From: Haliea sp.
GTDB lineage: Bacteria; Pseudomonadota; Gammaproteobacteria; Pseudomonadales; Halieaceae
Reading direction: 5' to 3'
Assembly (NCBI GenBank): GCA_031431315.1
Contig: JANPDE010000456.1
Span: 1-60,224, forward strand
DNA: 60,224 nt
How positions within the stretch are numbered: the stretch's first letter is position 1; the number at the start of each line of letters is the position of its first letter. The translations under genes were made by a program, and so were the position numbers. Below the pieces are notes generated by a model, which saw only the letters and a list, made by a program, of their open reading frames with translations, had not been told where the DNA came from and made no database searches. Below are positions 22,270 through 43,984 of the stretch, piece by piece.

Positions 22270-23193
22270 TCATCTACTGCTGGTTGCTGTCCGGGTGTGA
22301 GCACAAATCGCCGTATAGGTTTCGTGCATCCGTTCCATGTTCCAGGGGCGGCTCACCCGGTACACCAGGCTTTGGTCTGCCAGCTGGGCCAGCCAGCGCA
22401 GGCGCTGCTCCTGCAGGAAGTGGAAGCTGAACAGGTAGTTGGGCAGCAACTGCTCGAATTTGCGGAAGCCGGTGACTTCGGTGATCTCGATGCCGGCATG
22501 CGGCCCGGTCTGGTCGAGTGCGTAAAAGGCGTGGATCGGCCGCGCCTGCCGGGCAAAGTGCTCTATCGGGTTGCCCAGCACTTCAAACTGGCGGAAGGGC
22601 CGGTGGTGCGGGTGCGAAGGCACTGCATAATAGCGCCCTTGCTCGAGGAAGGTGGCCACCTTGTCGTCCGACAGCATGGGGTGGCCCTGCCTGAGGAAGT
22701 AGTCCCCCAGCGTGGACTTACCCCCCATGGAAGGCGCGATGAACAAAATTGGCTGCTCGTCCACCTCCACCGCGGCTGCGTGTATGAAGTCATAGCCCCG
22801 CTCCAGAGTGAGGTGCAGGGGCAGGAAGATGTGGACAAACCAGAAGACGAGTAAGGCCCGGTTACCCTCGTCACCGAGTTGGTAATAGATGACGGAGTCG
22901 CCCCCGGTCCAGCTGAAGTTCGCCACGCCTTCCACCTGCAGACACCACGGCTGGCCTGCGGCGCTGCGGGCCGCTTCGCGGTCGGTGCGCAGGTACAGCT
23001 CGCGGCCGTGGGTTGAATAGAAGGGCATGGTCTCGGCCAAGTACTCCGGGCGCGGCGCCGTCGCATCGGTGCCCGCCCGCCTCAACTCCAGCGTGCTATG
23101 CTCGCCCGGCGCTACTGCGCTCACCGGCGTCGGGCGATCAAATAGCGCAAATTCGCAGTCAACCTTCACCCCGTAGAGGCAGTGCTCAATCAT
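22270..23193 (-). CDS. HPr-kinase-related kinase (lasso peptide kinase-like)
   Basis: IHAAAV, Walker A variant APSMGGKSTL, LSDD; ATG 23193 overlaps the B2 stop. Confidence 0.8.
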   Translation of the reverse strand: MIEHCLYGVKVDCEFALFDRPTPVSAVAPGEHSTLELRRAGTDATAPRPEYLAETMPFYSTHGRELYLRTDREAARSAAGQPWCLQVEGVANFSWTGGDSVIYYQLGDEGNRALLVFWFVHIFLPLHLTLERGYDFIHAAAVEVDEQPILFIAPSMGGKSTLGDYFLRQGHPMLSDDKVATFLEQGRYYAVPSHPHHRPFRQFEVLGNPIEHFARQARPIHAFYALDQTGPHAGIEITEVTGFRKFEQLLPNYLFSFHFLQEQRLRWLAQLADQSLVYRVSRPWNMERMHETYTAICAHTRTATSSR

Positions 23194-23699
23194 GCGCGCC
23201 GCTCCCAGCTGAAGGTCGAAACCACGGTGAACTGCTCGTGGCCCGCCCTGCCATTCACAATATCGTCGCCACATTGCAACCAGGCATGGGCGGAAAGGCC
23301 CGTGGGGTCGTCAGTACGTTCACAGCCCCGGCGCACCCCCAGGTAAAACTGGCCGGGTATGTTGCGCTTCGCCAGCAGGCGCTGCGCCACCAACACCTGT
23401 GTCAGGCATAAGCTCTGCCAGGGGGTCACTCTACTGGCGGCGGCGACCAGCCGGCCTATGGCCATCGCCTCGTCGCGCATCCGCGGCGGCAGGGCAGGCG
23501 GCGGCATGGCGAGGAGATGGTGCTGCAATTTCCTGGACAGGCGCTTGAAGGAGACCAGCAGGACAGCCGCCCGGTACCAGCCCAGCATGAACCAGGCCTG
23601 CGCCAGCAGGAGCTTGTGGCGGGTGGGCAGGGCGGTGAATTTCTGCAGCCTGTAGGGCATGGGTGGCGCAGGTGGGCCTGTGTTGTGTAGGCTGGCCAC
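23190..23699 (-). CDS. Lasso peptide B2 leader peptidase (transglutaminase-like)
   Basis: SLCLTQ, LGVR, AHAWLQCGD giving a Cys-His-Asp triad; alternative start ATG 23660. Confidence 0.9.
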   Translation of the reverse strand: MASLHNTGPPAPPMPYRLQKFTALPTRHKLLLAQAWFMLGWYRAAVLLVSFKRLSRKLQHHLLAMPPPALPPRMRDEAMAIGRLVAAASRVTPWQSLCLTQVLVAQRLLAKRNIPGQFYLGVRRGCERTDDPTGLSAHAWLQCGDDIVNGRAGHEQFTVVSTFSWERRA

Positions 23700-23787: not shown

Positions 23788-25611
23788 TTGAGTGGCTTCA
23801 TTGCTATGGTCAACGCCAGTGGCGCAACAGTTGACCGCAACTTGCTGGAAACGCTGACCGCTTCATTGCAGTGCCGCGGTCCTGACCGCCAGCAGATATG
23901 GGCGGACGGCCCGGTTGGGCTTGGCCATACGCTGTTTCGCACCACCCGTGAGGCACAGTACGAAAACCAGCCGGCAAGCCTTGACGGCATGGTGTGGGTC
24001 ACTGGCTGCATACGGGTTGATGGCCGCCAGGCGCTTGTCGAGGAACTGCGCCTGAATACGCCACTTTCACTCGCAAGCACCCCCGATTCAGAACTGGTGC
24101 TGCACGCCTACCACACTTGGGGTGAGCACTGCCTGGATCACCTGCTGGGTGACTTTGCCTTTGCCTTGTGGGACGGACACAAACGGCAGTTGTTTTGCGC
24201 GAGGGACCGCTTCGGCATGCGGCAGCTTTACCACGCCCAGGTGGGCGACACCTGCATTATCAGCAACAGCATGCATTGCATGCGCCAACACCCCGCCATT
24301 TCCAGTGAGCTGAACGATCAGGCCATCGGAGATTTTCTGTTGTTCGGTGACCACATCTGGACCGATAAATCCCAGACGGCCTTCAATGACGTAAAAACCT
24401 TACCACCCGCTCATCAACTGACTTTCTGCGCCGACAGAACGACAATCGGGCGCTATTGGGATCTCCCGACGGATGTGCCCTTGCTCAAGTATCGTCGCGA
24501 AGAACAATACCTGGAGCATTTTCGATCCGTATTCACCCAGGCAGTGGACGATCGCTTGCGTTGTGATGACGTGGTGATTTCGATGAGCGGGGGGATGGAC
24601 TCCTCCGCGATAGCCGCCACCGCCACAAAAATTCGCCAGCAAGGCGGCCGGGATTTTGGCCTGCAGGCGATTACTGTCGTGTATGACAAACTGCATCACT
24701 GTCAGGAAAGACATTACTCCGGCCTGGTGGGGGAGCACCTTGGTGTTCCGATTCAATACATCGTCGCAGATCATCACCCGCTGCTGGCGCCTGCGATGCA
24801 ATGGACGCGTCCACTAGAGTACTATCAGCCCAGCATATGGATAGAGATGGCCCAACAAACCCTGCTATCCGCGCGCGTTATGCTGATCGGCGCTGCCGGC
24901 GACAATCTGCTGTGCTATTGGCCGTTCTTACCCACTATGGCGGAGGCCAACCCACTGCAGACGCTGCGCCAGATTTTCCAACTCAAAGCCCGCTACGGAA
25001 GAATGCCCGGGCTGGGAACGGGGTTGAAAGCCCGCTGGAAAAGGATGGCAGGTAAACCGGCCGGAAAAAGAAATCCCCCTTACCCCTATCCACCCTGGCT
25101 GAATCAAGACCTGGCAGACAGGTTTGCAATGCAGGATCGATGGGATGCTCTATGGGCAACCTTGTTTACTGGCGCAACCAGGCATGGGCTGCATCGTGAC
25201 GCGCTGATGTCACCCAACTGGAACACGGACGATTTGGCTATGACCGGGTCTTTAATAGCGCCTGAACAGCGCGACCCTTATCTGGATCTCAGGCTGGTAA
25301 ATTTCGTGCTGTCCCTTCCGCCCATGCCATGGCTGTATCAAAAACATATCCTGCGACAAGGCGTCAAAAACTTATTACCAACAGCTGTTATAGAAAGACC
25401 GAAGCAGGCTTTGGGTGATTTGGCGAGTTCACTTATCGGACAAGCGGCATTCGATACGCAGCCTCCGAGTGGTGACCTGGATAAAGTTGACCTGGATAAA
25501 TATGTTAACGCAGCTGCTTTCAGAAAAGCCATTGCTGGGATTGGTGATGGAGGCCTGAATTATGTAAACCTGCGGCCCCCGATATTAAGACAGTGGCTCC
25601 AAATGCTATGA
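23788..25611 (+). CDS. Lasso cyclase (asparagine-synthetase-like) C1
   Basis: TTG start after AAGGA gives MSGF, with Ser in place of the catalytic Cys; RGPD, GDFAFALWD, SMSGGMDSS, RDPYLD; adjacent to B2 and a precursor. Confidence 0.85.
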   Translation: MSGFIAMVNASGATVDRNLLETLTASLQCRGPDRQQIWADGPVGLGHTLFRTTREAQYENQPASLDGMVWVTGCIRVDGRQALVEELRLNTPLSLASTPDSELVLHAYHTWGEHCLDHLLGDFAFALWDGHKRQLFCARDRFGMRQLYHAQVGDTCIISNSMHCMRQHPAISSELNDQAIGDFLLFGDHIWTDKSQTAFNDVKTLPPAHQLTFCADRTTIGRYWDLPTDVPLLKYRREEQYLEHFRSVFTQAVDDRLRCDDVVISMSGGMDSSAIAATATKIRQQGGRDFGLQAITVVYDKLHHCQERHYSGLVGEHLGVPIQYIVADHHPLLAPAMQWTRPLEYYQPSIWIEMAQQTLLSARVMLIGAAGDNLLCYWPFLPTMAEANPLQTLRQIFQLKARYGRMPGLGTGLKARWKRMAGKPAGKRNPPYPYPPWLNQDLADRFAMQDRWDALWATLFTGATRHGLHRDALMSPNWNTDDLAMTGSLIAPEQRDPYLDLRLVNFVLSLPPMPWLYQKHILRQGVKNLLPTAVIERPKQALGDLASSLIGQAAFDTQPPSGDLDKVDLDKYVNAAAFRKAIAGIGDGGLNYVNLRPPILRQWLQML

Positions 25612-25624
25612 AGCAAAGCGGCTT

Positions 25625-25795
25625 CTATGATCCCTGGCCGGGGGGAATCATAGTTCCCATGCTGTTGCCGGGGGTGTCATTTATGGTGTCAGGGCCGTTA
25701 TTCTGCGTAGTACGCGTTATGGACCCGAATGAGGTCAATGTAGGGGTGTCGTATGATTTTTTACAGGGTTTGCGAGTATCTGTTTCAGGTGTCAT
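25625..25795 (-). CDS. Lasso precursor A1 (56 aa); predicted core NNGPDTINDTPGNSMGTMIPPGQGS
   Basis: Leader YDTPTLTSFGSITRTTQ fits YxxPxLxxxGxxxxxT with Thr at -2; Asp9 acceptor; AAGGGA upstream. Confidence 0.85.
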   Translation of the reverse strand: MTPETDTRKPCKKSYDTPTLTSFGSITRTTQNNGPDTINDTPGNSMGTMIPPGQGS

Positions 25796-25931
25796 CGTTG
25801 CGGTCCCTTGCAGATTTTGCACGGTGTCTGACTGATGGTCCCAGCAAAGCCGGTCGTTTGCAAGGAAAGCCCTGCACAGGACCCCACCAAATTTCCAGTA
25901 TACGATTTTGAAAGCCGGGTTGGGTTGTGCA

Positions 25932-27074
25932 CTAACTAAATCGCTCAACCAGATCCTGCACAAACCGCAATGCTTCCGTATGTTCCTTGAAAAGCGCTCT
26001 ACGCTGCTCCTGTAATTCAGACGCAAGGTGCTCCACAGTCGATTCACCGTTCATCCGGCCGAGCAGCCAGAGCGCAGCCTCGCCTTTTGTACCGAGCGCC
26101 GGATGGTAATGCAGTGTTTTCTTTTGCATGTCTTCGAGCCTGACTGGTTGCGATAAAAACGAACTCTGGCGTTGGTGCTGGTCGCCCAGACGCGTGCTCC
26201 AGGACCATTCCCCCCGCTCAGGCCGCTTCAGGCTGAATCCGAGGCGATCTCCCTTTACCACCGGCAGCGGTTGGGCCAGGGGCATGAAGACCTGGTTCCA
26301 GTGGGTTTTGCAGCTTTCCCCGTCGGTCGACAGCCACTCGTCCACCAGCCGCATCTGGAACCAGCCCATCCAGCCGTGGCAAACTCCATTGCGCTGAACA
26401 GTGACTTCCACCTGGCTGTCGCATGCGGCTTTTGTCGCCGTGTTGAAATCCAGCTCCAACACCGCGACGGGCTCGGCCAGCCGCTGGGCCTGCATATGCT
26501 TCGCGCTGTCATGCCGCATGTAGTTTGCCGCGTAGGCCCGCAGCGCGCTGTAATCCAGCTCCGGCAAACCCTGCTCGTTACACACCCGGGGGAAGTCACC
26601 CCAGGACGCGACATGCTTGTCGTAGTAGGCGGGCGCAGTAACGGGAACGACTTCCATTCTCCCGCGGTCGGGAATCAGCCGGCCGCCGGGTGCCAGATAA
26701 TGGTCGCGGGCGTAAAAGAGCGATGGCAGCAGGTCTTCGCTGAGCAGGAAATTGCCGGTGAACACCGACACGATGACATCGACCCTGGTATCAAGCTGCA
26801 GTTCCTCCGCCCGGGCACGGATACATTCCACCGCGTCGAGCTGATTGTCGGCTGCGACGGTGCGGGCCACTTCAACGGCGACCGTGGGTTCAACCAGGTA
26901 CACCTTCGCTGCCCCCAGCCGCGCGGCAATAAGCCCGAGAACTCCAAGTCCCGCCCCCAGGTCCATGACCGTCGTGTCCGGGGTAATTACCTTTTTCAGG
27001 GCGCTGGTGTAGGCGGCATTGCGGGTGCCGTCAAACACCATGCCGCGGTGCCCCACTACATCTTTATAACTCAT
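25932..27074 (-). CDS. PRMT-fold (protein arginine methyltransferase-like) SAM methyltransferase
   Basis: HRGMVFDGTRNAAY, VMDLGAGLG, VYLVE, VDVIVS, ARDHYLAPGGRLIP and THWNQ align with PRMT1 motifs. Confidence 0.85.
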   Translation of the reverse strand: MSYKDVVGHRGMVFDGTRNAAYTSALKKVITPDTTVMDLGAGLGVLGLIAARLGAAKVYLVEPTVAVEVARTVAADNQLDAVECIRARAEELQLDTRVDVIVSVFTGNFLLSEDLLPSLFYARDHYLAPGGRLIPDRGRMEVVPVTAPAYYDKHVASWGDFPRVCNEQGLPELDYSALRAYAANYMRHDSAKHMQAQRLAEPVAVLELDFNTATKAACDSQVEVTVQRNGVCHGWMGWFQMRLVDEWLSTDGESCKTHWNQVFMPLAQPLPVVKGDRLGFSLKRPERGEWSWSTRLGDQHQRQSSFLSQPVRLEDMQKKTLHYHPALGTKGEAALWLLGRMNGESTVEHLASELQEQRRALFKEHTEALRFVQDLVERFS

Positions 27075-27207
27075 GATTTTCCGGCGCTTCCTTCAACTAT
27101 CATGGCGGGTAGCTTTCGTACTGCCCTTTTGTGTACGCTGGCCACTCTACCAAGCGCCTCCTGCAAAGACAAAAAGAGTCACTCTGGCGGCGCAGCTCGG
27201 GACCACC

Positions 27208-28833
27208 ATGAATTTCTCGGTACTGCTGACCTACATCACCCCGCATCGCCGCGTGCTTATGGCGGTGCTGGGCCTGTTGCTGGCGGGCAGCCTGGTGTCG
27301 CTGGCCAACCCCTGGATGGCGGGGCTGCTGACCGCCAGTGTGTTGGGCCAGGGTGAGCATGAGCCGAAGCTGATCCTGGCCCTGTGGCTTGGCCTGATGG
27401 CCACAACCAGTCTGATCGGCTTTTTTACCAGCTACCGCATTGGCACCACGGGGGAGCAACTGACAGCGGGGCTGCGCGAGCGGCTTCACCAGCACCTGCA
27501 GGCACTGCCCCTGGCTTACTACCAGCGGCGTCGGCCGGGCGAAACGCTGACCCTGCTCAGTGCCGACGCCGCCATTATCAGCAGTTTTGTGACCGCCACC
27601 CTGGTGCAGCTGCTGCCTGCCCTGCTCACCTTTATCGGGGCCTTTATCCTGATGGCATGGCTGGCCCCTGTCATCGCCCTGCTGGTCGTGCTGTTCCTGC
27701 CGGCCTACGTGCTTGCAATGAAGATCATGGGGCGGCAGCTGCGGCCACTGTCACGCGCATGGGTCGATGCTAACAGCCGCGTGGTGTCGGTGGTACAGGA
27801 AAACCTCGACATGCTGCCCGCCATCAAGGCCTTTACCCGCGAACAACACGAGCAGGGGCGATTTGAAGCGGTCAACCGGCAATTGCTGGCGCTATCGCAA
27901 CGGCAGCTGCGCTTACAGTCCCTGCTCTCACCCGCGATCGGCCTGCTGGGCGGGATCGGGCTTGTCGCCCTGCTGTGGATGGGCACCGCGCAGATAGAAA
28001 GCGGCCAGTTGGCGCCGTCACAGATGGTCAGCCTGCTGCTCTATGCCATGCTCCTGATGAGCCCGCTGAGCACCCTGGCCGACATTTACGGGCAGGTGCA
28101 GCGCACCCGCGGCAGCGCCGAGCGGATCATCGAATTCCTGGGGGAGCAACCTGAACCGGCGGATGAGGGCAACCGGGTGCTCGACCATGTAAAGGGCCGC
28201 ATAGAGTTCCGCGATGTCAGCTTCGGCTACCCGGGGCGCCCGCCCGTGCTCAGCCACTTCAACCTGGAGATATCCGCCGGTGAAACACTGGCGCTCACCG
28301 GCCCCAATGGCGCGGGCAAATCCACGCTCGCCCACCTGCTGATGCGCTTCGCCGACCCGGACGAAGGCGCCGTGATGATCGATGGCGTGGACACCCGCGC
28401 GGCCACCATCACCAGTGTGCGTGCCCAGATCGGCCTGGTGGCGCAGAATGTACTGCTGCTCAACGGCAGCGTGGCCGAGAATATCGCCTATGGGGAACCG
28501 ACAGTGAGCCGGGAAAAAATCGAGGCCGCCGCCAAAGCCGCCCATGCCCATGCCTTTATCACGCAACTGCCCGATGGTTACGATACGGTGATCGGCGACC
28601 AAGGCGTAAGGCTCTCTGGCGGCCAGCGCCAGCGCATATCACTGGCCCGCACCCTGCTGAAGGACCCGCCCATCCTCATCCTGGATGAGGCCACAGCCAT
28701 GTTCGACCCTGAGGGGGAGAAGGCGTTTATTGAAGAGTGTCGGGAGATGTTGGGGCGCAAGACGGTGATTTTAATTACTCATCGGCCAGCCAGTTTGGCG
28801 TTGGCGGACAGGACGATTAGAATTGAAACATGA
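27208..28833 (+). CDS. ABC exporter, fused TMD-NBD (lasso D-like)
   Basis: Hydrophobic N-terminal domain; GPNGAGKST, LSGGQRQR, LILDEAT. Confidence 0.9.
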   Translation: MNFSVLLTYITPHRRVLMAVLGLLLAGSLVSLANPWMAGLLTASVLGQGEHEPKLILALWLGLMATTSLIGFFTSYRIGTTGEQLTAGLRERLHQHLQALPLAYYQRRRPGETLTLLSADAAIISSFVTATLVQLLPALLTFIGAFILMAWLAPVIALLVVLFLPAYVLAMKIMGRQLRPLSRAWVDANSRVVSVVQENLDMLPAIKAFTREQHEQGRFEAVNRQLLALSQRQLRLQSLLSPAIGLLGGIGLVALLWMGTAQIESGQLAPSQMVSLLLYAMLLMSPLSTLADIYGQVQRTRGSAERIIEFLGEQPEPADEGNRVLDHVKGRIEFRDVSFGYPGRPPVLSHFNLEISAGETLALTGPNGAGKSTLAHLLMRFADPDEGAVMIDGVDTRAATITSVRAQIGLVAQNVLLLNGSVAENIAYGEPTVSREKIEAAAKAAHAHAFITQLPDGYDTVIGDQGVRLSGGQRQRISLARTLLKDPPILILDEATAMFDPEGEKAFIEECREMLGRKTVILITHRPASLALADRTIRIET

Positions 28834-28843
28834 TACCGAGTGA

Positions 28844-30580
28844 TTAGTTTAAATCCATCGACATGTTCAAAACCAGAATGGACCTTATCGCGGTAGTTAT
28901 ATCCACTATCAGTTCCTCCGGCGTTCCTGATTCTCTACGCGCTATTTTGTCCAGCAAAATATTTAGTTTAGCCCAGTCAATAAACGGGTTGTCCCTCGCG
29001 CCGGCCGGATGATCCGCATGCCACCGGGACAGGGCATCAACGCATATCTGAATGGCTTTCGCTATACGAACGGGTTCATTTTTGTGGATTGAAGCCCAGA
29101 CCTCCTGTGGTAAAAGGTCTCGTACTACATAGCGAAAAAGATATCGGGGATGGCCCTTGCGACGAAACATTTGTGCAGGTAGTCCCAACGCAAATTCCAC
29201 AATTCGCTTATCTAACAGCGGATAACGATACTCCACGCCAGCCCGCCGACCAGAGGCAGCCCAGGACTCCAGTCGACATAACACATGTCCCGCTTCCCAA
29301 TAGGCCAGCTGACTCTTTCGAACGGAATACCTGGGGTGCTGATCTACCGCGAAGGGCAGTGCACGAGCGCATTCAGCCAGGGCAGCAGACGCGGCACCCA
29401 GATAATCGGGTACGACCTGCCTTGAGATTAATCTCCGGGGCAGAAATGGCATCAATAGTTCGCGGCAAGCCAACGAAAAAAAGCTGCGAAAATGGTGATC
29501 ATTTTCGGCAGTCGCATGCCAAAGGTCGCGCAGGGTCGACAGCAGATTTCCCGCTAAAAGAGTTTCCGCATAGCGTTGATTTCCGTAATGTGTAATCAAC
29601 TCATCGCCGCCCCAGCCGGACAGAATTATTGAGCCTCCACTCGCGACTACTTCTTCCCTGACTGCGAACTCATACCAGCAATCCGCGGTATCACCGCCTG
29701 CTATGTTCAAATTCCGGAGCAACGACAGCATGCTGTCACTGTTGAATTCACAATAGTGCAAGTCAATATCGTACCGATTGGCTACGGATATCCCGGTGGC
29801 CCATTCCGGGTCGAGTGCCTCGGATGCGTTTTGCGGGGGAGCCAACCAACTGTATCCGGTGACAGAGGGTCCAGCTTTAGTCGCCTGCATTGCTGCCAGT
29901 GCTGCGATTGCAGAGGAATCGAGCCCGCCACTGAGGTGGACAGCCAGAGCGCCATGCCTGGGGATCCGGCAAGCAACCGCCTCCAGTAGTAGCTGGTGCA
30001 GCCTATCGGCGTAATCCTTCAGGGTAGGCAACATTACTCCAGGGCTATCCTCGGGGCGCCAGTAGATCCATTCCCTGATTTGACTGTCCTCGACGGTCAT
30101 GGCGCTGGCCCGGGGGAGCTTTCTTACTTTGTCGAAAAATGTCAGTCTGGAATCACGCAACTCACCATCGCGTAGATATAACGCCACCGCTTCGCGACAA
30201 ACACGCTTGGGTACAGGGCCACAATTTGTAATCGCAGATATGTCATCGGAGACAATCGCTGTAGCGTCATCTGCAAAGAAGTAGAAAGGCACTACGCCAA
30301 TATGGTCTCGGGCACAGAACACCCAATCATTAACCGGATCATCAATTGCGAACGCAAAATCACCCAGCAGGAATTCAGGGGTTTTTACTCCCCATTTCTG
30401 GTATGCAAGGAGGATAAGGGCATCATCAGAAAGGGCGTTAAGCGCCAGTGAAGGTATGCACAGCAGCTGGGCTAACTCGGCTCGATTGTCCAGCCGCGCT
30501 TTCGCGTCTATCGTTAGGGTTCTGGTAGCGGGAAGTGCAATTGAACGATGGGATCGTTGCCTCGCGAAACGGCCGAACAT
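28844..30580 (-). CDS. Lasso cyclase (asparagine-synthetase-like) C2
   Basis: No N-terminal Cys and shortened Ntn domain; ARLDNR, GDFAF, HLSGGLDSS, SGWGGDE, RYPLLDKR; 36 bp downstream of precursor A2. Confidence 0.85.
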   Translation of the reverse strand: MFGRFARQRSHRSIALPATRTLTIDAKARLDNRAELAQLLCIPSLALNALSDDALILLAYQKWGVKTPEFLLGDFAFAIDDPVNDWVFCARDHIGVVPFYFFADDATAIVSDDISAITNCGPVPKRVCREAVALYLRDGELRDSRLTFFDKVRKLPRASAMTVEDSQIREWIYWRPEDSPGVMLPTLKDYADRLHQLLLEAVACRIPRHGALAVHLSGGLDSSAIAALAAMQATKAGPSVTGYSWLAPPQNASEALDPEWATGISVANRYDIDLHYCEFNSDSMLSLLRNLNIAGGDTADCWYEFAVREEVVASGGSIILSGWGGDELITHYGNQRYAETLLAGNLLSTLRDLWHATAENDHHFRSFFSLACRELLMPFLPRRLISRQVVPDYLGAASAALAECARALPFAVDQHPRYSVRKSQLAYWEAGHVLCRLESWAASGRRAGVEYRYPLLDKRIVEFALGLPAQMFRRKGHPRYLFRYVVRDLLPQEVWASIHKNEPVRIAKAIQICVDALSRWHADHPAGARDNPFIDWAKLNILLDKIARRESGTPEELIVDITTAIRSILVLNMSMDLN

Positions 30581-31049: not shown

Positions 31050-32156
31050 TCAGTAACAGTGCTCAAGCGCGCTGTGCATTGCAGCGGCAACGTTATCTAC
31101 CTCTGACATCGACAGGTGCGGCCCAATGGGCAGACTTAATACTTCGCGCGCCAGGCGATCGGCGACCGGCCACTTGCCGGCACTGCCATGTATTTCGACA
31201 TAAGCTTTTTGCCTGAAGGGTGGAATCGGATAGTGAATCAGTGTCGCGATGCCTGCGTCGCTGAGTCGCGCTTGCAATTCATCCCTGTGTGTCGAGGAAA
31301 TGACATAGAGGTGCCATGCGTGTACTGACTCGGGACTCGCCTCCGGCAATGTCAGTGGCAGGCCCGCCAGCTTTGCTGCATAGCGTTGCGCAATTAGCGC
31401 TCGCCTGTCGTTCCATGACCGAAGATGGCGCAGCTTCACCGAGAGAATGGCGGCCTGTATCGGATCGAGACGGCTGTTTACCCCTTTTTCGTCATTCACA
31501 TACTTTCTTGATGACCCGTAGTTGCGCAGTTCACTAATACGCCGGGCAAGGCCTTCATCATCCGTGGTAATTGCCCCGGCATCGCCAAACGCGCCCAGGT
31601 TCTTGCCGGGGTAAAAGCTCCAGGCCACGATATCGGCTGACTTGCCGATCATGGTTCCGCCAGTGGCAGCGCCGTGCGCCTGCGCTGCGTCTTCTACCAT
31701 GCGCAGCCTATGCTTGAGACATATTTTTCGCAGCGCCGGGATATCCGCTGGATGGCCGTAAAGGTGCACCGGCAGTAACACCTTGGTGCGGGTTGTGATG
31801 GCGGCTTCCACCAAAATCGGGTCAATACAGTGTGTGACCGGGTTTGCCTCGACAGGCACAATCGTTGCGCCAACCGCGCTCACCGCGAGCCAGGTCGCGA
31901 TATACGTATTGGCGGGGACGATGACTTCATCACCGGGACCTATGTCCAGCGCGCGCAGGGAGAGAACCAGGGCGTCGAGACCGTTGCCAACGCCAACGCA
32001 GTATCTGGAGGTCACAAACTCGGCAAATTCGCGTTCAAATGCCGTAACCTCATCTCCCAAGATATACCACCCCGAGTCCAGAACGCGTGCGACGGCCTCA
32101 TCAATCTCGGCTTTCAATTCAGTGTAGGTGCTTCTTAACTCGAGAAAGGGTATCAA
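31050..32156 (-). CDS. DegT/DnrJ/EryC1/StrS sugar aminotransferase (FdtB/QdtB-like)
   Basis: [36 protein letters not shown] (PLP Lys). Confidence 0.92.
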
Positions 32157-33046
32157 TGTCCTACACCTTTCTCACGCAGGTAATCGCCGTAATTCCGTAT
32201 GTAATCCTTGGGGTCATAGTAATTCGATGCAAATACCAGCAGCACGCCATCTGCCGAGTACTTGTACTGATTCGCCCATACGCCGGGAGGAATGTAGAGT
32301 CCCAGCGTTGGCGAATCGAGTAATATCTCTTCGCGATTAACACCATCATCAACAACGACACTGACAGACCCTGTCACGCAGGTCAAAAATTGCTGGCACT
32401 CGCGGTGCGCATGCTCACCTCTGGTTTCCGCGCTGGGCACATCGTAGACAAGGAAATAGCGCTTTGGCCTGAATGGGACGTTCCGGGAAAATTCACCGAC
32501 GGAAAGATCACCGCGTAAATCACGTATCCGCTTGAACCGGTGGATAGTCACACCGGCAACTGAACAGGTGTTGACTCCAGGCTCTTCCGAAGCTTGAACG
32601 GGCGCATTGGCAAGATCGCTGCTGCCGCCACTTGAATAGCCGATGATGACGCCCGGGTTGCCGTGCACAATGGCATAAGGCGGAATGCACCTGGAAACAA
32701 TTGTGCCTGGCGCTATTCTTGCGTTCATGCCAATGGTAATACCGCAGATCAGTACACTGCCGGCTCCTACATGGACATTGGGCTCGATGGTTATCGCTGC
32801 AGGAGTGGCTGCGGCGCCAGTGTCGTGAAAGTCATTGGCGATGCAGACTCCAGGCTCCAAGGTGCAGTTTTCGCCAATCTCCAACGTGCCAATCAACGTA
32901 ATACCGCCCAGCAAAACAGCTCCCTTGGCAATAGAGATGTCACCATCGATATAACAATTCGGGCCTACGTTTGCATCAGCATCGATATGTACTCTGGGTG
33001 AGATATAAGACGATGGATGATGGCCGACGGGTGACTGCTCTTTCAT
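32153..33046 (-). CDS. WxcM-like bifunctional LbH acetyltransferase / cupin 3,4-ketoisomerase
   Basis: N-terminal hexapeptide repeats; C-terminal DLRGDL, RGEHAH, YIRNY of the FdtA cupin. Confidence 0.85.
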
Positions 33047-33085
33047 GTTAAAGTCCAGCGCTTCTCTATGGCGATTTTCTGCAGC

Positions 33086-34390
33086 CTACCGGCCGACGCA
33101 ACTGTAGTGGAATCCGTGCGCCTGCATCGTGCTCCGTTCGTAAACATTGCGCAGATCCACGAACACATTGCCTCGCATCAACGATTTCAATCGGGCCAGA
33201 TCGAGCCCGCGGTACTGATTCCACTCCGTCATCAGGACGATGGCATCGGCATCACGGACAGTATCGTCGATGCTGTTCGCGTACTCAATGGTATCCCGTA
33301 ATTCCTTGCGGGCTTCATCCATGCCATGCGGATCGTGGGCCTTTATGCTTGCCCCCTGTGTGACCAGGGCGGGCAGAATTGTCAGGGAGGGTGCATCTCG
33401 CATGTCGTCAGTCTCGGGTTTAAACGTCAGCCCCAGTACTGCGATTGTCTTATGCGCCACACTGCCACCCAGCGCGTCTTGTATTTTCACCACCATGCGG
33501 GATTTCTGTGCGGTATTCACTGCGACAACCGCCTCCACGATTCGAGTGGGGGTGCCGGCCTCCTGGGCCATACGGATCATCGCCTGGGTGTCCTTGGGAA
33601 AGCAGGAGCCGCCATAGCCTGGCCCCGGATGCAGAAATTTCTTGCCAATGCGTGCGTCCAGCCCCATGCCTCTTGCCACCGCGTGGACATCGGCGCCAGT
33701 TTTTTCGCACAATTGCGCCACTTCATTAATGAAGCTGATTTTTGTCGCCAGGAAGGCGTTGGCTGCGTATTTGGTGATCTCAGCGCTTTCCAGGTCAGTC
33801 ACCAGGATGGGAGCCTCGATCAGGTACAGCGGCCGGTACAGTTCACGCAGCAGGGTTTCGGCCCGTTTATTCTCCACACCCAGCACGACGCGATCCGGGC
33901 GCATGAAATCGTTGATCGCCGAGCCCTCGCGCAAAAATTCGGGGTTGGAAGCGACATCGAAGTCGGCTGTCGGGTTGGCCTGTTGTATGACGCGCTTTAC
34001 CTCCCGGGCGGTTCCCACCGGCACAGTGGATTTATCCACAATAATGGTGTAACCCTGCAGGTGCTCGGCAATTTGACAAGCAGCGGCATACACATATTTA
34101 AGATCGGCGTGGCCATCGCCACGGCGGGTCGGTGTACCAACGGCAATGAAAATAAGATCTGCGTCGCCAATCCAGTCCTGGAATTTTGTAGAGAACTGCA
34201 GGCGTCCGGCCTGCATATTGCTGTGCACCAGATCTTCGAGGCCGGGTTCGTAGATCGGTATCTTGCCATGTTGCAGGGCAGCAATCTTTTCGGCATCCAC
34301 ATCCAGGCAGGTGACATTGGCGCCAAACTCGGCAAAGCAGGCCCCGGACACCAGTCCCACATAGCCCGCACCGATCATCACAACATTCAT
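33086..34390 (-). CDS. ugd: UDP-glucose 6-dehydrogenase
   Basis: [36 protein letters not shown]. Confidence 0.95.
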
Positions 34391-35403
34391 GGTTGTTCCT
34401 TGTGCATGTATTGCAGATACCAGGCGATAAAATTGTTGATGCCATCCTGCACCGGCGTTTGCGGCCGGTAGTCGACAGCCTCGATCAGGTCCTCAATATC
34501 CGCATAGGTGGCTGCCACATCGCCTGGCTGCATCGGCAGCAAATCCTGCTGCGCGGTTCTTCCCAGCGCCTTTTCTATTGCCGCGATAAAATCGGTCAAT
34601 AACACCGGTTTACTATTGCCAATGTTGTACAAACGGTAGGGAGCGCTGCTGGTACCGGGGTCTGGGAAGTTGGCATCCCAGGCGCGATTGGCAGTGGCAG
34701 GCGCATCGGTGACGCGGATTATGCCCTCGACGATATCGTCCACGTACGTGAAATCACGCTGCATCGCGCCGTTGTTGAATACCTTGATGGGTTCTCCTGC
34801 CAGAATGGCTTTGGTGAACAGGAAGAGCGCCATATCGGGTCGTCCCCAAGGGCCGTACACCGTGAAAAAGCGCAGGCCCGTCGTGGGAATGCCGTATAGG
34901 TGTGAATAGGTGTGAGCCATCAGTTCATTGGCCTTCTTGCTCGCGGCGTACAGCGAGATCGGATGGTCCACGTTGTCGTGCACGGAAAAAGGCATCGCAC
35001 CGTTCATGCCGTAGACGGAACTGCTGCTGGCGTACACCAGGTGACCGATGTGGTGGTGTCGACAGCATTCCAGCACATTCATGAACCCCACAATATTGCT
35101 GTCGATATAAGCGTGGGGGTTTTCCAGCGAATAACGCACACCGGCCTGGGCGGCGAGATTGATCACGGCGTCAAAGCGGTTGTGGGCAAATAATTCCACC
35201 ATGGCAGCTCGGTCCTGCAGGTCGGCGCGAATGAAACGAAAGCCACCCTGCTTTTGTAGCCTTGCCAGGCGTGCTTCCTTCAGGCTGACAGCGTAATAGT
35301 CGTTGAGGTTGTCCAGGCCAGTGACGGTGTCGCCGCGCGCCAGTAACTTGTCGCTGAGGTGATAGCCAATAAAGCCGGCAGCGCCGGTGACCAGAATATG
35401 CAT
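34387..35403 (-). CDS. UDP-glucuronate 4-epimerase (CapI/Uge-like)
   Basis: [36 protein letters not shown]. Confidence 0.92.
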
Positions 35404-35574
35404 TGGGGTGACTCTATTACGCGAGCTTGGTGCTGCATGATAAATTGTTTTGTCTGCTTTTGCATTGCATCAGAGTGTGCGCTGCCGCCCGAAATGGTGC
35501 ACCAGGGCTTCCCACATGGTGCAAACGGATATACTCTCAGTCGCTTGGTGCAATGACAATCCGGGACGAATGGA

Positions 35575-36591
35575 ATGGCCGGAACCGTATTGGTGACAGG
35601 TGGCGCAGGGTACATTGGTAGTCACGCATGTGTGGCGCTAATGGAAGCCGGTTATAAGGTGGTGATACTCGACAACCTTTGCAATAGCAGCGTGGTTGTC
35701 CTGCAGCGCCTGCAGGAAATCTGTGGTACGGCACCCATCTTCATTCGGGGAGATGTTCGCGATCAGGCTTGCCTGGAGCAGATTTTTCGCACCCATACCA
35801 TAGTTGCGGTGTTGCACTTTGCCGGCCTGAAGGCGGTCGGCGAGTCAGTGTCCATGCCACTGGAGTACTATGACAACAATGTCGCGGGCTCGCTTGCACT
35901 ACTGGCTGCCATGCGCCATGCCGGGGTTACGAACCTGGTGTTCTCCTCTTCCGCCACGGTGTATGGGGACCCGGCTACGGTTCCTATCCGCGAAGATTTT
36001 GCCCTCGCCCCAACCAGCCCGTACGGCCGCACCAAACACATGGTGGAAGTCATATTGGCGGACTGGCACCATGCGAATCCCGACTGGAGCATAGGCCGCT
36101 TACGTTATTTCAACCCGGTCGGAGCGCACCCCAGCGGACGTATTGGCGAGGATCCCCGGGGTTTCCCCAACAACCTGATGCCGTTTGTGGCGCAGGTGGC
36201 CGTGGGCCAGCGCGATAAGTTGTATGTCTTCGGCAATGACTATGCGACCCCGGATGGCACCGGTGTGCGCGACTATATCCACGTGATGGATCTGGTGGAT
36301 GGGCATGTCGTTGCATTGGATCACGTCTGCCAGCAAGGTGGATTGCATACCATTAATCTGGGTACCGGCAACGGCGTATCGGTGCTGGAAATGGTGGGTG
36401 CCTTCGAGCGCGCAAGTGGGAAATCAGTTCCCTACGAGATTGTCGCGCGTCGCCCCGGCGATATCGCTGCCTGCTGGGCTGACCCCGGCCTGGCGCTGCA
36501 ACTATTGCGGTGGAAGGCTACCCGCACACTGCAACAAATGTGTGAAGACGCCTGGCGTTGGCAAGCGGGCAATCCCACGGGCTACGCATGA
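35575..36591 (+). CDS. galE: UDP-glucose 4-epimerase
   Basis: GGAGYIGSH, HFAGLKAVGES, FSSSATVYG, YGRTK, LRYFNPVGAH. Confidence 0.95.
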   Translation: MAGTVLVTGGAGYIGSHACVALMEAGYKVVILDNLCNSSVVVLQRLQEICGTAPIFIRGDVRDQACLEQIFRTHTIVAVLHFAGLKAVGESVSMPLEYYDNNVAGSLALLAAMRHAGVTNLVFSSSATVYGDPATVPIREDFALAPTSPYGRTKHMVEVILADWHHANPDWSIGRLRYFNPVGAHPSGRIGEDPRGFPNNLMPFVAQVAVGQRDKLYVFGNDYATPDGTGVRDYIHVMDLVDGHVVALDHVCQQGGLHTINLGTGNGVSVLEMVGAFERASGKSVPYEIVARRPGDIAACWADPGLALQLLRWKATRTLQQMCEDAWRWQAGNPTGYA

Positions 36592-37355
36592 CGGCGTTTA
36601 CCCTCTCCAAACTGCTGTCACTGCTGATTTATCCCCTCAGCCTGAGTCTGCTGCTGTGCGTACTGGCCCTGATTTTTTCCGGTTTGCGCTGGCCCCGTCG
36701 CAGTTTCTATACCTTGTTGCTGGCTGTCAGCTGGTTATACCTGTGCTCCACGGCCATGTTTGCGAACTTTCTCACGGGCACGCTGGAGCGCGGATTTGTG
36801 CCCCGTGCCATGTCGGCCATCGGCACGGCGGACGCCATTGTGCTGCTGGGTGGCGCCATGCGTGGCGATACCCACATGGGCACATTGCCCGATCTCAACC
36901 AGCACGCCGACCGACTGGTGCAAGCCGTCGCACTGTATAAGGCGGGCAAAGCGCCAGTCGTAGTGCTGACCGGAGGCGGAGTTGAAGGTGCGCGGCCAGA
37001 GGCCCAGCAGATGAAAGACCTGCTGGTCATCATGGGTGTGCCGTCGCAGCATATCGTGCTGGAAAACCAGAGCCGCGACACCCACGACAATGCCGTCTAT
37101 TCGGCGCGATTGCTCAAGGCCAGGGGTATGCACCGTATCCTGCTGGTGACATCCGCCTATCACATGCGACGCTCACTGGCACTGTTCGAGGCGCAGGGGC
37201 TGGAGGTAGTGCCAGCGCCGACGGATTACCAACAACTGGTAGCCAAACAGGTCTTGCCTGATTGGCTGCCCGTCGTCAGCAACCTGTCCCAGTCTACCAA
37301 TGCCCTACACGAAATCGTGGGTTTTTGGGTCTACCGCTGGCAGGGCTGGCTGTAG
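36588..37355 (+). CDS. YdcF/ElyC (DUF218) envelope protein
   Basis: AIVLLGG, ENQSRDTHDNA, LVTSAYHMRRS, HEIVG; ATG overlaps the galE stop. Confidence 0.88.
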   Translation: MTAFTLSKLLSLLIYPLSLSLLLCVLALIFSGLRWPRRSFYTLLLAVSWLYLCSTAMFANFLTGTLERGFVPRAMSAIGTADAIVLLGGAMRGDTHMGTLPDLNQHADRLVQAVALYKAGKAPVVVLTGGGVEGARPEAQQMKDLLVIMGVPSQHIVLENQSRDTHDNAVYSARLLKARGMHRILLVTSAYHMRRSLALFEAQGLEVVPAPTDYQQLVAKQVLPDWLPVVSNLSQSTNALHEIVGFWVYRWQGWL

Positions 37356-37356
37356 C

Positions 37357-37767
37357 CTAGTGACAGTGGCGTATCTTGTATTCGCTGTAACTCAAGCCCG
37401 TCCAGCGCCGGAAGGCGCGGTAGAAGCTGTTAACCTCCAGGTAGCCTAATTCATCCGCGAGGCACTTGCCGGGGCGCCACATGGCGCGCAACACCTGCTC
37501 ACAGCGGTATTGCCGGGCGCGGTCCAGCAGGAACTGGTAGCAGGTGTGATCGGCACGCAGACGACGGCGCAGGGTGGTGCTGCTCATACCCAGCGATTCT
37601 GCGACGGAATCGGCGCGCAGGCGGGCCAGATCGCCACCGAGCAGTATCTGCAGCACCCGGTCTGTCGTGCGGGAGAGGGCGAGGTACCCGGGTTTTTCGG
37701 GCGGCGGGAGGGTATCTTCCCCGCCGTGGTGCGATAAAAGTGATTGTTCCATAGCCATAACTTCCAT
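37357..37767 (-). CDS. Small AraC-family HTH protein without a sensor domain
   Basis: VAESLGMSSTTLRRRL...LADELGYLEVNSFYRAFRRWTG; start uncertain. Confidence 0.8.
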   Translation of the reverse strand: MEVMAMEQSLLSHHGGEDTLPPPEKPGYLALSRTTDRVLQILLGGDLARLRADSVAESLGMSSTTLRRRLRADHTCYQFLLDRARQYRCEQVLRAMWRPGKCLADELGYLEVNSFYRAFRRWTGLSYSEYKIRHCH

Positions 37768-38095
37768 GTTGTGGTTTCCAGGGGTGTGTTGCCTACCGCG
37801 TGACCCGGTGTCTCTTGTCTCTGGTCTCTGGTCCTGCGCTAATCCCTGCGCTGGGTCAACGGTAACTATCAAGTTAGCACAAAATCACCGTTTTAAAAGA
37901 TGCACGGGTGGACTGAACGAATTTGGTTATTTTGTCCGCCTGCTGCCAGCGCCATCTCTATCACTACATTGACACAGTGACGTTCAGCAGCATCCTATAA
38001 TGGTGGCATGATGCAAATTACGCCCATACCATCGGTGACCACTTTGCTGCCGGCAGCCGTGTAGCAAGTCAAAGTGGACATAAATCCACTACCCA

Positions 38096-40520: not shown

Positions 40521-42668
40521 CTAAGCCGATGAGACCTCGACCGATACCCCGTTCACCGCGGCGTTCCCCGACAGTGCGTCCAGCACCAGATCATCGGTGA
40601 TGTCGTTGCAGCTTACGCCTGCATGGCGCGCCGCGACAGACAGTCGTATCCCTGCGCGGTCATGTCCGAAGCCGTGCGGCAGGCTGACCACGCCGGGCAT
40701 GATTTCCTCAGTGGCTTCCACGACAACCTGCAGTGTCCCCACACGCGAACGCACGCTGACTTCACTGCCTTGGGCAATGCCCCGCTGCTGCAGGTCATCA
40801 GGGTGCATCAACAGCGTACAGCGATTCTTGCCCTTCACGAGTCGCCGGTAGTTGTGCATCCAGGAGTTATTGGAACGCACATGACGGCGGCCAATCAATT
40901 GCAGCGGTCGCAGTTGCGGTTGATTGGATAATGCTGCTGCGGTGATGGGAAACTCACGGCGCACGCGGGCGAGGTCTGCCAGGGGTTCCGGCGTGTCACA
41001 ACGGATAGTCTTATCTTTGGTTTGCAGGCGAGCGGGCAATTGTGGTTGTAGCGCACCGAGGTCGATCCCGGAAGGATGCTCGCGTAATTTTGCCAGCGAC
41101 ATACCCTGCGTCGCATAGGGGCCGAATTGCAGTCCCAGATCGATGATCTGCGCCGGTGCCACGCTTGGCTGTGGTTCATTGCCCAACAACTGCGCCACGC
41201 GATTGCCCAACTCCGTGAAGATTTCCCAGTCGTGCAGGGCGCCGGCGGGCTTGTCGAAAACAGCTTCATTGAACCGCGCGGTATTGCGCACAGCATTGGC
41301 ATGAAAGGCAAGGTCGTAGTGATCGTGCTCCAGCGGCGATGTGGGCGGCAGAATAATGTCCGCGTGGCGCGTGGTTTCATTGAGATACGGGTCCAGCGAC
41401 ACCATGAATTCAAGCTGCGCCAGGGCTTCATCCAGTTGCCGTCCGTTGGGCGTGGACATGACCGGGTTGCCGGCGCCCGTGAATAGCGCGCGAATCTGGT
41501 GCTCTCCCGGCGTGGTGATCTCTTCGGCGAGTGTGGAAGCGGGAAACTCGCGATCGAATTCCGGCAGGCCGCGCACGCGACTGTGGTGGCGGGCAAAACC
41601 GCCGGGACTGCTGGTGCTCACCTGGTCTATCGCGGGCAGGGTGAAAAGCGAGCCGCCCGGAAGATCCAGATTGCCGGTGGCTATATTGATCAACTGAATC
41701 AGCCACTGGTTAAGGGCGCCATAGGCCTGGGTGGAAACGCCCATGCGGCCGTAGCAGATGGCCGCCCCGGCAGCGGCAAACTCCCGAGCCAGCCGGCGGA
41801 TGGTGTCGGCATCGATCTGCGTGTGCTGCGCGGCGTACTCCGCAGTGAAATCGTCAATGGCGTGACGCACCACGTCCAGCCCGCTGGTGAAATCGCGCAG
41901 GTGTGCGGTATCGTCCAGACCTTCACTCAGGATGGTGTGCAACACTGCCAGCAGGAACAGCGCGTCAGTGCCGGGCTTGATAAAATGGTGTTCACTGGCG
42001 ATTTGCGCGGTTTCCGTATGGCGTGGATCTAGCACGACCAACTTGCCGCCGCGCGCCTGCAGCGCCTTGATACGCTTTTTCACGTCCGGCACTGTCCAGA
42101 TACTGCCATTGGAAGCAATGGGATTGGCACCCAGCATCAGGAGGTAGTCGCTGCGGTCAATATCGGGTATGGGAAACAGGAACTTGTGGCCGAACAACCA
42201 CAGGGCTGCCAGATGGTGGGGCAGTTGATCCACCGAGGTGGCGGAGAAGCGGTTATTGGTGCGCAAGTGCCTGAACAGGTTGCCCTGGTGGGTCAGCATG
42301 CCGTGGTTGTGCACGGAGGGATTGCCCATATAGACGCCGATGGCGTGCACGCCGTTTTTTTCGTGCACAGCAACCAGTCCCTGTGCCGCGCTGTCCAGTG
42401 CCTCGTCCCAGCTGATCTCCTGCCATTGCATTTCCCCAGCAGCATTGGTAGTGCGCCGCAGCGGTTGCCGCAGGCGGTCCGGGTCCTCGTGGAAATCCTG
42501 CAAGGCCATCGCCTTGGGACAGACGTGGCCACGGCTCAGTGGGTCATTTTTGTCGCCCTTGATTGAGAGGATTTGATCGCCCTCGGTTTCTATCACCAAT
42601 CCGCAGATCGCCTCGCACAGGTGGCAGGCCCGAAAATGTGTTTTTCGTTCTGCGGACGCCTGACTCAT
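40521..42668 (-). CDS. Molybdopterin (bis-MGD) oxidoreductase with N-terminal 4Fe-4S motif, substrate unknown
   Basis: CHLCEAICG...GHVCPK, GANP, ETTRHADIILP, C-terminal molydopterin-binding domain (VSLPHGFG). Confidence 0.88.
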   Translation of the reverse strand: MSQASAERKTHFRACHLCEAICGLVIETEGDQILSIKGDKNDPLSRGHVCPKAMALQDFHEDPDRLRQPLRRTTNAAGEMQWQEISWDEALDSAAQGLVAVHEKNGVHAIGVYMGNPSVHNHGMLTHQGNLFRHLRTNNRFSATSVDQLPHHLAALWLFGHKFLFPIPDIDRSDYLLMLGANPIASNGSIWTVPDVKKRIKALQARGGKLVVLDPRHTETAQIASEHHFIKPGTDALFLLAVLHTILSEGLDDTAHLRDFTSGLDVVRHAIDDFTAEYAAQHTQIDADTIRRLAREFAAAGAAICYGRMGVSTQAYGALNQWLIQLINIATGNLDLPGGSLFTLPAIDQVSTSSPGGFARHHSRVRGLPEFDREFPASTLAEEITTPGEHQIRALFTGAGNPVMSTPNGRQLDEALAQLEFMVSLDPYLNETTRHADIILPPTSPLEHDHYDLAFHANAVRNTARFNEAVFDKPAGALHDWEIFTELGNRVAQLLGNEPQPSVAPAQIIDLGLQFGPYATQGMSLAKLREHPSGIDLGALQPQLPARLQTKDKTIRCDTPEPLADLARVRREFPITAAALSNQPQLRPLQLIGRRHVRSNNSWMHNYRRLVKGKNRCTLLMHPDDLQQRGIAQGSEVSVRSRVGTLQVVVEATEEIMPGVVSLPHGFGHDRAGIRLSVAARHAGVSCNDITDDLVLDALSGNAAVNGVSVEVSSA

Positions 42669-42946
42669 GGGGCAATCTGCAGTCGAATAAGGCCGCGCTG
42701 GCAGGCATCCGTGAGAAAGGCTTCAAGATCGGCGCCCAGTTGCGGTCCCTCAACCTCGTATTCTTCCAGCAGGGTGTTGTAGATGATGCGCAACTCACCG
42801 CTTTCCCGGATCAACTGCCAGATGCGCGTGCTCACCGCGTCCAGGCCGAAGTAGCACTCGCTTTCCAGGTCGAGTAGTACGGTTTCGCCGGAAACTTCCT
42901 GGTAGATCACGTCTGGTGAAAGGATTACGGTTTGATTCAGGTTCAT
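42665..42946 (-). CDS. PqqD-family RiPP recognition element (lasso B1), 93 aa
   Basis: QEVSGETVLLDLESECYFGLDAVSTRIWQLI...EEYEV...DLEAFL; GGAGGAG upstream; stop overlaps the oxidoreductase ATG. Confidence 0.9.
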   Translation of the reverse strand: MNLNQTVILSPDVIYQEVSGETVLLDLESECYFGLDAVSTRIWQLIRESGELRIIYNTLLEEYEVEGPQLGADLEAFLTDACQRGLIRLQIAP

Positions 42947-43075: not shown

Positions 43076-43984
43076 ATGTTGAACGCTATTGCCGAACTCA
43101 ACCGCATTACCTCAGGACCGCGACCCTTGTCCGAAGCCGATCTGCTGCGCCTCGTTGTGTTGCGACATGAAATTGGGGCCAAGCATGTTCGCAACACGGG
43201 TGCGCCACTGCCAACCACGCCGACGCAGGACCTTTTTCCCGGTGTCGTGGGGGCGCCTGAGATCTCCGGAGCCGAGTTGACCGCCGCGCATGTGGCCTCG
43301 GGCCTGCGCCACCATGGCGCCCTCGTGGTCAGGGGTCTGGTGGCGCCAGCGGAGGTTGAGCGGCTCTGTGGCCTCATTGATGGTCGAGACTGGTCCCAGC
43401 CGCTGGTTCCGACCGACGAACAGGGCCAGCCGAGCCAGGGTTCCGCCCCCATGAAGTGCTCGGCGGCCGCGTTGCAGGGGCTGGTGGAGGCCTACCACAA
43501 TGCGGGCATGGGCGCTGTGATGACGGACTACCTTGGCGAAGCCCCTGTGTTGCTGTCCGAGCGGCTACAGATAGACCGGCAGATACTAAAGTTAGGGCTG
43601 CCGTGGCATCAGGACGGTGCTTTCTTCGGGGGCAACATTCGTGCCGTGAACAGTTTTCTCTCTCTGGACGAGTGCGGCACTGATGTCACGGGGCTGTCGG
43701 TGGTGACGCGTCGCCTGGATGAGGTCTTGGGGGTCGAGGCCGGTCAGCGTGCTCCGCTGAGCTACGGCAATTCCTTCGACCACAAGGAAGTGGTTGCCAT
43801 GGCCGGCATCGGTCGGGTTGTTACGCCGATCCTCGGGCCTGGCGACGCCATTTTTATTGACGAGATGACCCTGCACCGCACGGCCAAACCGCCGAAAAAC
43901 CCCCGGCCCCGTACGTGGGCGGTAACCTGGTTTTGCGCGCCGTCGCGGTTTCCGGAGCAACGTCACCCGCTCTGGTTTGGTTGA
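43076..43984 (+). CDS. PhyH-like Fe(II)/2-oxoglutarate dioxygenase
   Basis: PWHQDG (HxD), PGDAIF, LHRT and a downstream Arg. Confidence 0.8.
   Translation: MLNAIAELNRITSGPRPLSEADLLRLVVLRHEIGAKHVRNTGAPLPTTPTQDLFPGVVGAPEISGAELTAAHVASGLRHHGALVVRGLVAPAEVERLCGLIDGRDWSQPLVPTDEQGQPSQGSAPMKCSAAALQGLVEAYHNAGMGAVMTDYLGEAPVLLSERLQIDRQILKLGLPWHQDGAFFGGNIRAVNSFLSLDECGTDVTGLSVVTRRLDEVLGVEAGQRAPLSYGNSFDHKEVVAMAGIGRVVTPILGPGDAIFIDEMTLHRTAKPPKNPRPRTWAVTWFCAPSRFPEQRHPLWFG

Follow-up and report, generated by a model that had tools for sequence, protein, structure and literature searches.

The window, i.e., the whole stretch of 60,224 nucleotides analysed here (positions 1 to 60,224 of contig JANPDE010000456.1 from Haliea sp.), raises the question of whether a short peptide hidden within an over-long open reading frame (ORF) is the precursor of a lasso peptide and, if so, whether a ring starting with asparagine may stay threaded on a tail that offers no aromatic plug. 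The gene concerned and its ribosome-binding site are as follows.

25625..25795, minus strand: precursor A1, 56 amino acids (aa) plus stop, consisting of a 31-aa leader and a 25-aa predicted core with a C-terminal Ser
25804..25809, minus strand: Shine-Dalgarno-like AAGGGA, 8 nt upstream of the A1 ATG

By translation, A1 is the in-frame end of a 140-aa ORF starting at a GTG (25625-26047). The sequence-only reading had proposed a 56-aa peptide with its own ribosome-binding site inside this ORF, and this is borne out, as the translation returns the leader and the 25-residue core quoted there and AAGGGA precedes the ATG. The GTG has only GGA upstream and lies 116 nt within a methyltransferase gene. 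An orthologue of A1 from a metagenome (P0114, 89% identical) is likewise over-called, at 100 aa, and its N-terminal extension follows two other reading frames of the window; thus, the extension of A1 is not conserved. The 140-aa ORF was considered as a real gene and rejected for its weak ribosome-binding site, its overlap with the methyltransferase gene and the unconserved frame of its extension.

A strict pattern combining the leader, Met and an Asp or Glu at position 9 matched once in the 4.6-Mb genome, namely at A1, and had no match in 60 mononucleotide-shuffled windows. A1 also matches the NCBIfam lasso peptide family NF033528 (E 3.7e-7, 30 bits), although below its 33-bit cut-off, and carries the features of class II lasso precursors: a YxxPxL leader motif with Thr at -2, and an acceptor Asp or Glu at core positions 7-9, here Asp9. 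Leader motifs, the NF033528 match and the adjoining cyclase and B2 peptidase all agree with the earlier assignment to the lasso type. A1 is almost certainly a real precursor gene, and most likely encodes the precursor of a kinase-type lasso peptide with an Asn1-Asp9 ring. A protein search with A1 alone as query gave no matches, and a DNA search of 306 family genomes returned, besides the window, only a weak 29-base match. Promoter and terminator scans stayed at chance level (2 versus 4.2 and 11 versus 8.3, respectively). A profile search places A1 in a family of 8154 representatives at E up to 0.001, not all of them verified. Counts given below out of 148 representatives and 120 matches refer to the top-scoring 150 and 120 matches of a profile built from 45 precursors; since this profile itself held members with Asn1 and Asp10, both are biased samples, and one acidobacterial clade is dominant in the 120-protein set.

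The predicted cut site follows from the leader.

25703..25753, minus strand: leader recognition stretch, with Tyr-17, Pro-14, Leu-12, Gly-8 and Thr-2

The lasso leader register given in the accessible text of PMC10368454 comprises Tyr-17, Pro-14, Leu-12 and Thr-2, and A1 fits all four positions with Asn at +1 and Asp at +9. The Asn1-Asp9 register proposed earlier is therefore the best one by all four residues, and Asp9 is moreover the main acceptor of the family (117 of 148 representatives in the biased sample). Cleavage giving an Asn1 start is, as judged from these motifs, highly probable, and an Asn1-Asp9 ring is predicted with nearly the same confidence. Acceptor positions were also counted in a leader-only scan unfiltered for the acceptor, which covered 78 cyclase loci (80 of 564 confirmed C1-homologue loci minus the repeats L037 and L065). 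Among its 72 matches, Asp or Glu was the acceptor at position 9 in 44, at position 10 in 23, at position 8 in four and at position 7 in none.

Alternatively, cleavage could be shifted, by one residue to start at Asn2 with an eight-residue ring or by two to start at Gly with a seven-residue ring. Gly is dominant at position 1 of known lassos, as far as the accessible part of PMC13060267 goes, Asn is frequent at position 2 (15/90 cores), and a one-residue shift would turn the relatives G220 and G122, which have Asp10, into ordinary nine-residue rings. However, either shift loses Thr-2 and displaces Tyr-17, Thr is found at -1 in none of 25 Asp10-only precursors, and what separates Asp9 from Asp10 relatives is a single residue within the ring, not a change in the leader. 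A one-residue shift would leave Asn as the first residue anyway. Shifted cleavage seems very improbable, and the Asn1-Asp9 register is retained below.

The enzyme expected to close this ring is encoded next to A1.

23788..25611, plus strand: cyclase C1 with an asparagine-synthetase fold, convergent on A1 and likely its cognate enzyme

C1 scores above the cut-off of PF00733, while its best NCBIfam match, the lasso cyclase NF033535, reaches 314 bits and stays below the cut-off of 525. In a FastTree phylogeny of 87 cyclases, which carries SH-like support only and covers loci that have a precursor no more than 2.5 kb away and a cyclase match of at least 280 aa, C1 falls in a clade with 100% support, and each of the nine other cyclases of this clade has a precursor of the same type facing or following it. 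C1 is thus the likely cognate cyclase of A1. The 10 precursors of the C1 clade show seven different first residues (Ala in three, Asn in two, and Val, Gln, Lys, Thr and Ser), and position 1 is, on these predicted cores, free.

Asn1 had been called rare, and this applies to characterised lassos but not to the family. It is predicted in 5/90 locus-anchored cores and in 20 of the 148 top representatives (50% clustering; biased sample), and the LassoPred table of predictions holds seven rows with Asn1 cores for six of the 400 possible Asn-start prefixes looked up. There is also a published precedent, metanodin, which the accessible text of PMC12670498 describes as the first lasso peptide to start with Asn; it was made in E. 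coli, its MS/MS interlocked fragments support threading, its acceptor is Asp, and its tail contains His and no Phe, Trp or Tyr.

The ring itself is unchanged among the alleles found.

25676..25702, minus strand: predicted macrolactam ring Asn1-Asp9, identical in X4, X5, X6 and P0114

The X4/X5 alleles, from contigs of sequencing runs of other studies as is X6, differ from A1 by nine changed codons and X6 by ten; the changes are confined to the leader and to positions 13, 16 and 17 of the core, and ring positions 1-9 carry no substitution in X4/X5 and X6, which are few alleles of low depth. The core of P0114 differs from that of A1 at positions 13 and 17 only.

Ring size is less uniform among relatives. 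The nearest relative of C1, that of G220 (72%), is paired with a precursor in which Asp10 is the only acceptor, as it is in one of the two precursors of G122. Asp10-only cores make up 23/72 wide matches, 26/148 representatives and 46/120 closer matches, the latter two being the biased samples, and near-identical Asp9 and Asp10 cores are set apart by a single ring residue. Mapped on the 87-cyclase tree, the Asp10 label changes 14 times, with at least 11 changes forced by well-supported branches. Asp10-only precursors were seen at L145:10100-10600, at L146:2050-2560 and in the 23 wide matches (within L038-L116), scattered across the cyclase tree. According to the accessible parts of reviews, natural rings range from 7 to 9 residues, ten being reached only in engineered fusilassin, and a literature search on natural ten-residue rings found only the mention of this engineered peptide. 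Relatives of A1, as opposed to A1 itself, may therefore form ten-residue rings if their predicted cut sites are right.

The second part of the question concerns the tail, and one position in particular.

25652..25654, minus strand: core position 17, Thr in A1, Phe in X4/X5 and Tyr in P0114, a candidate plug

The A1 tail is free of Phe, Trp, Tyr, His, Arg and Lys. The earlier statement that there is no aromatic plug thus stands for the A1 allele but does not extend to other alleles, which carry Phe17 (X4/X5) or Tyr17 (P0114). Tails without Phe, Trp or Tyr are the family majority (50/90 cores; 113 of 148 representatives in the biased sample), and the novelty claimed for Asn1 and for the aromatic-free tail mostly fails, as both have a published precedent and each is common in the family; all features flagged earlier are either precedented or ordinary among family members. 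Tails that lack His, Arg and Lys as well are found in 10/90 family cores, six of these 10 in the C1 clade. Steric locks are usually aromatic, and their replacement tends to stop maturation or permit unthreading, according to the accessible text of PMC13352647. Position 17, being Phe or Tyr in other alleles and Thr in A1, is thus marked as the likely lock, with the Thr17 of A1 probably an odd allele; the Phe17 evidence consists of one low-depth contig in each of X4 and X5, two runs of one study. With the lack of a plug limited to the A1 allele, the threading question is real yet narrower, and nature provides alleles with which it could be tested.

It could be speculated that the Asn1-Asp9 ring forms but that the Thr17 allele does not stay threaded, leaving a branched-cyclic peptide, either as a plug-loss variant or in a family that needs no threading. 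The ring of nine residues, a tail with Met, Ile or Gln as its largest residues, the Phe or Tyr at position 17 elsewhere, the C1-clade share of tails without Phe, Trp, Tyr, His, Arg and Lys, and the common Asp10 precursors, which predict still wider rings, all speak for this. On the other side, metanodin threads without Phe, Trp or Tyr, though with one His (PMC12670498, accessible text), in solved lassos 17 of the 20 residue types occur above the ring and 14 below (PMC12214591, accessible text), and Phe17 is known from a single low-depth contig per run. A branched-cyclic product is therefore considered unlikely, and stable threading of the A1 allele is, on balance, favoured from its predicted core. 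The nine-residue-ring lassos fusilassin and cellulassin unthread on heating, and AlphaFold-type tools fail on the lasso topology, as stated in the accessible part of the LassoPred report.

Besides A1 and C1, the window contains the following lasso genes.

23190..23660, minus strand: B2 leader peptidase with the conserved Cys and His-Ala-Trp, the single PF13471 member of the genome
22045..22152, minus strand: truncated RRE remnant of 35 codons, its first 24 residues 92% identical to the intact RRE
42665..42946, minus strand: intact RRE (B1, PF05402), 93 aa, 17 kb from A1
27073..28833, plus strand: ABC exporter (D)

Both B2 (PF13471) and the RRE (PF05402) score above cut-off, the RRE not being adjacent to A1. 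Among B2 homologues, the Cys is conserved in 33/33 and His-Ala-Trp in 32/32. RRE and leader are the textbook binding pair. The RRE is duplicated in the window, with the remnant before rfaH and the intact copy 20 kb further. A misassembly of the order B2-C1-A1-methyltransferase was considered and rejected, as contigs of X4, which come from another study, bridge the B2/C1, C1/A1 and A1/methyltransferase junctions.

Dispersal of this kind might indicate that the pathway has decayed in the source genome and that A1 is not matured. The truncated RRE, the scrambled gene orientations and the 5' end of B2 could be read in this way, the latter differing from that of three metagenome relatives (L014, L015 and L016) in which the methyltransferase gene directly precedes B2 with no A1 or C1 between them. 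However, an intact RRE is present, all enzyme reading frames of the A1 cluster are open, and the B2/C1 junction is common to X4 and X6, with the same divergent layout in G220. Furthermore, a C1 homologue occurs in 4/47 genus relatives, each facing a precursor (one of them frameshifted), and all four keep B2 and the RRE elsewhere, so that dispersed lasso genes appear normal here. Decay is accordingly regarded as improbable, and a working Asn1-Asp9 pathway remains the preferred reading. The G035 precursor (L011:8700-8880) has a one-base frameshift and the G036 cyclase (L013) is broken; both genomes have other split genes too, and a sequencing error is possible.

A large surface-polysaccharide locus (window positions 1-21540 and 31050-40153) surrounds the lasso genes and includes glycosyltransferases, a carbamoyltransferase, FkbM methyltransferases, RfaH and sugar-nucleotide enzymes. 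A 302-aa ORF adjoining the intact RRE (43076-43984, plus strand) has no Pfam match at 1e-5 but contains His-x-Asp and a later His, a pattern typical of Fe(II)/2-oxoglutarate dioxygenases.

Two putative tailoring enzymes belong to the cluster.

22270..23193, minus strand: HprK-like kinase with His-Lys-Asp-Asp residues, family match weak (E 7e-5)
25932..27074, minus strand: PRMT-fold methyltransferase with Val in place of the first Glu of the double-E loop

In kinase homologues, the His, the Lys and the second Asp are conserved in 16/16 and the first Asp in 15/16. Lasso kinases with His-Lys-Asp-Asp act on the linear precursor and phosphorylate its C-terminal Ser (PMC9266682, accessible text), and a terminal Ser is present in eight of the 10 C1-clade precursors (Ser25 in A1) and a penultimate Ser in the other two, while only 19/90 cores of the wider family end in Ser. 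As the related kinase BsfK modifies Ser3 (PMC10368454, accessible text), the site could differ; phospho-Ser on the A1 product is predicted with a somewhat better than even chance. In L015, an intact RRE lies between B2 and rfaH without a kinase, and an X3 contig skips 22230-23204; the kinase thus looks like a variable insert.

The best PDB match of the methyltransferase is PRMT2 (E 2.9e-26), its THW loop is aligned, and it is closest to eukaryotic PRMTs. The double-glutamate loop has a catalytic role in PRMTs. Its first Glu is Val in 20/49 and Asp in 29/49 homologues, and never Glu. Two PRMT-like subtypes accompany such clusters, one with Val and the THW kept (20/49) and one with Asp and a Tyr-containing stretch replacing THW (29/49), as sampled at 25932-27074 of the window, L031-L033, L039-L112 and L146-L162. 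Neither the A1 core nor that of A2, the second precursor of the window, contains Arg, which excludes arginine methylation of either core by sequence; together with the missing catalytic Glu, this makes the methyltransferase unlikely to be arginine-directed. Should A1 be among its substrates, the enzyme would more probably modify an amide side chain or a carboxylate. A literature search on lasso peptides and arginine methyltransferases found no relevant paper.

A second precursor-cyclase pair lies beside the first.

28844..30580, minus strand: second cyclase-like protein C2, likely the partner of A2, sharing ~31% identity with C1 over 213 aa
30617..30805, minus strand: second precursor A2, 62 aa, with shorter leader spacing, a Glu acceptor, two tail Cys and a C-terminal Ser

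A2 has a 15-residue spacing from the leader Trp to the cut and Glu9. Its tail cysteines, Cys18 and Cys27, are kept in 7/7 homologues, which suggests a class IV-like tail disulfide. Position +1 is Asn in the window and in none of the seven homologues (Ser in four, Thr in three), whereas Gly2 is invariant, and thus a Gly1-Glu8 register is also possible for A2. Two precursor-cyclase pairs side by side were likewise seen in L146 (G122), L151, L152, L153 and L040, the latter (Leptolyngbya) having both leader types as in the window. Elsewhere in the A1 precursor family, Met-rich tails recur among gammaproteobacterial members, L157:3500-4000 and L153 contain precursors with long Gly-Met repeat tails, and P0122 and P0124 carry four or five tandem lasso-leader-like repeats, with P0122 ending in a further domain.

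Taken together, the A1 product is proposed, with a probability of roughly 60%, to be cut after Gln-1 and closed between Asn1 and Asp9 by C1, with the remote RRE, kinase, B2 and exporter taking part, giving a threaded but heat-labile lasso. This draws on the ORF itself, the motifs of its leader, the catalytic residues present in the enzymes, the conservation of the precursor-cyclase pairing and a ring unchanged across alleles. First, the RRE encoded 17 kb away would bind the A1 leader, upon which the kinase would phosphorylate the linear precursor, most likely at the terminal Ser25. B2 would then cleave between Gln-1 and Asn1, C1 would adenylate Asp9 and join it to the alpha-amine of Asn1 around the pre-folded tail, and the ABC transporter would export the product. 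Near position 17, Phe or Tyr would hold the tail in other alleles; in A1, a weaker hold would come from Met15, Met18, Ile19 and the kink at Pro20-Pro21, and this is why the A1 allele is expected to be threaded yet heat-labile. Against the proposal, C1 reaches 314 of 525 bits and A1 30 of 33 bits of the NCBIfam cut-offs, the adjoining RRE is truncated and the intact copy lies far off, the genes do not share one orientation, and leaders of two types would depend on a single B2 and a single RRE. In addition, four clusters with split B and tailoring enzymes gave a product in E. coli in 0/4 cases, according to the accessible text of the metanodin study (PMC12670498).

A broader and more tentative idea, given less than an even chance, is that the C1 lineage is bound neither to a particular first residue nor to one ring size and natively closes nine- and ten-residue rings around tails free of an aromatic lock. 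Thr17, Phe17 and Tyr17 would then form a natural series from branched-cyclic or labile to locked, and the PRMT-fold enzyme would add a non-arginine decoration of undescribed chemistry. If true, a cyclase tolerating any first residue and both ring sizes would be a useful engineering enzyme, and acceptor filters set to positions 7-9 in genome mining would overlook between about one fifth and one third of the A1 precursor family. A1 itself would be the second characterised Asn1 lasso and the first product of a family that comprises thousands of precursor clusters and for which no characterised product was found. The remaining value lies in the natural alleles at position 17, a ready test of threading in aromatic-free lassos with nine-residue rings, and in a cyclase lineage possibly able to close ten-residue rings.

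Among known systems, the predicted 'lasso_cyano' family NF033528 shares the leader type and Asp9 with A1, which scores 30 bits against its cut-off of 33. Cyanobacterial members appear in the LassoPred predicted set, as far as its accessible part goes; literature searches found no characterised member, nor anything on 'cyanobacterial lasso' or on lasso, cyanobacteria, HPr kinase and methyltransferase combined. The following comparisons refer to the accessible texts of the papers cited. The Bsf system of Bradymonas sediminis (PMC10368454) resembles that of A1 in Tyr-17/Pro-14/Leu-12, a kinase, split B and a Gram-negative host. BsfA differs in having Ile-2, a Gly1-Asp8 ring and phospho-Ser3, and its mature lasso was never detected. 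Metanodin (PMC12670498), from a soil metagenome and a Steroidobacteraceae-like host, has in common with A1 the Asn1, the Asp acceptor, Thr-2, a nine-residue ring (in metanodin by reading of the text), a tail without Phe, Trp or Tyr, a precursor missed by automatic annotation and a gammaproteobacterial host. However, its cluster is of the classical ABC type with a fused B, encodes an isopeptidase and lacks tailoring enzymes. For A1, B1 and B2 are split and dispersed, a kinase, an exporter and a PRMT-like enzyme are encoded as well, and the tail has 16 residues with Ser at its end. The two tails show no evident similarity. Finally, the paeninodin, ThcoA, SyanA and pseudomycoidin clusters (PMC9266682, PMC8498205) share with A1 the split B1/B2, an HprK-like kinase with His-Lys-Asp-Asp, a C-terminal Ser and an ABC exporter, phosphorylation being a prediction in A1. 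Unlike this group, A1 has a Tyr-to-cut spacing of 17 residues and Gly-8, its RRE is remote, and its surroundings include a PRMT-like methyltransferase and a second precursor-cyclase pair.
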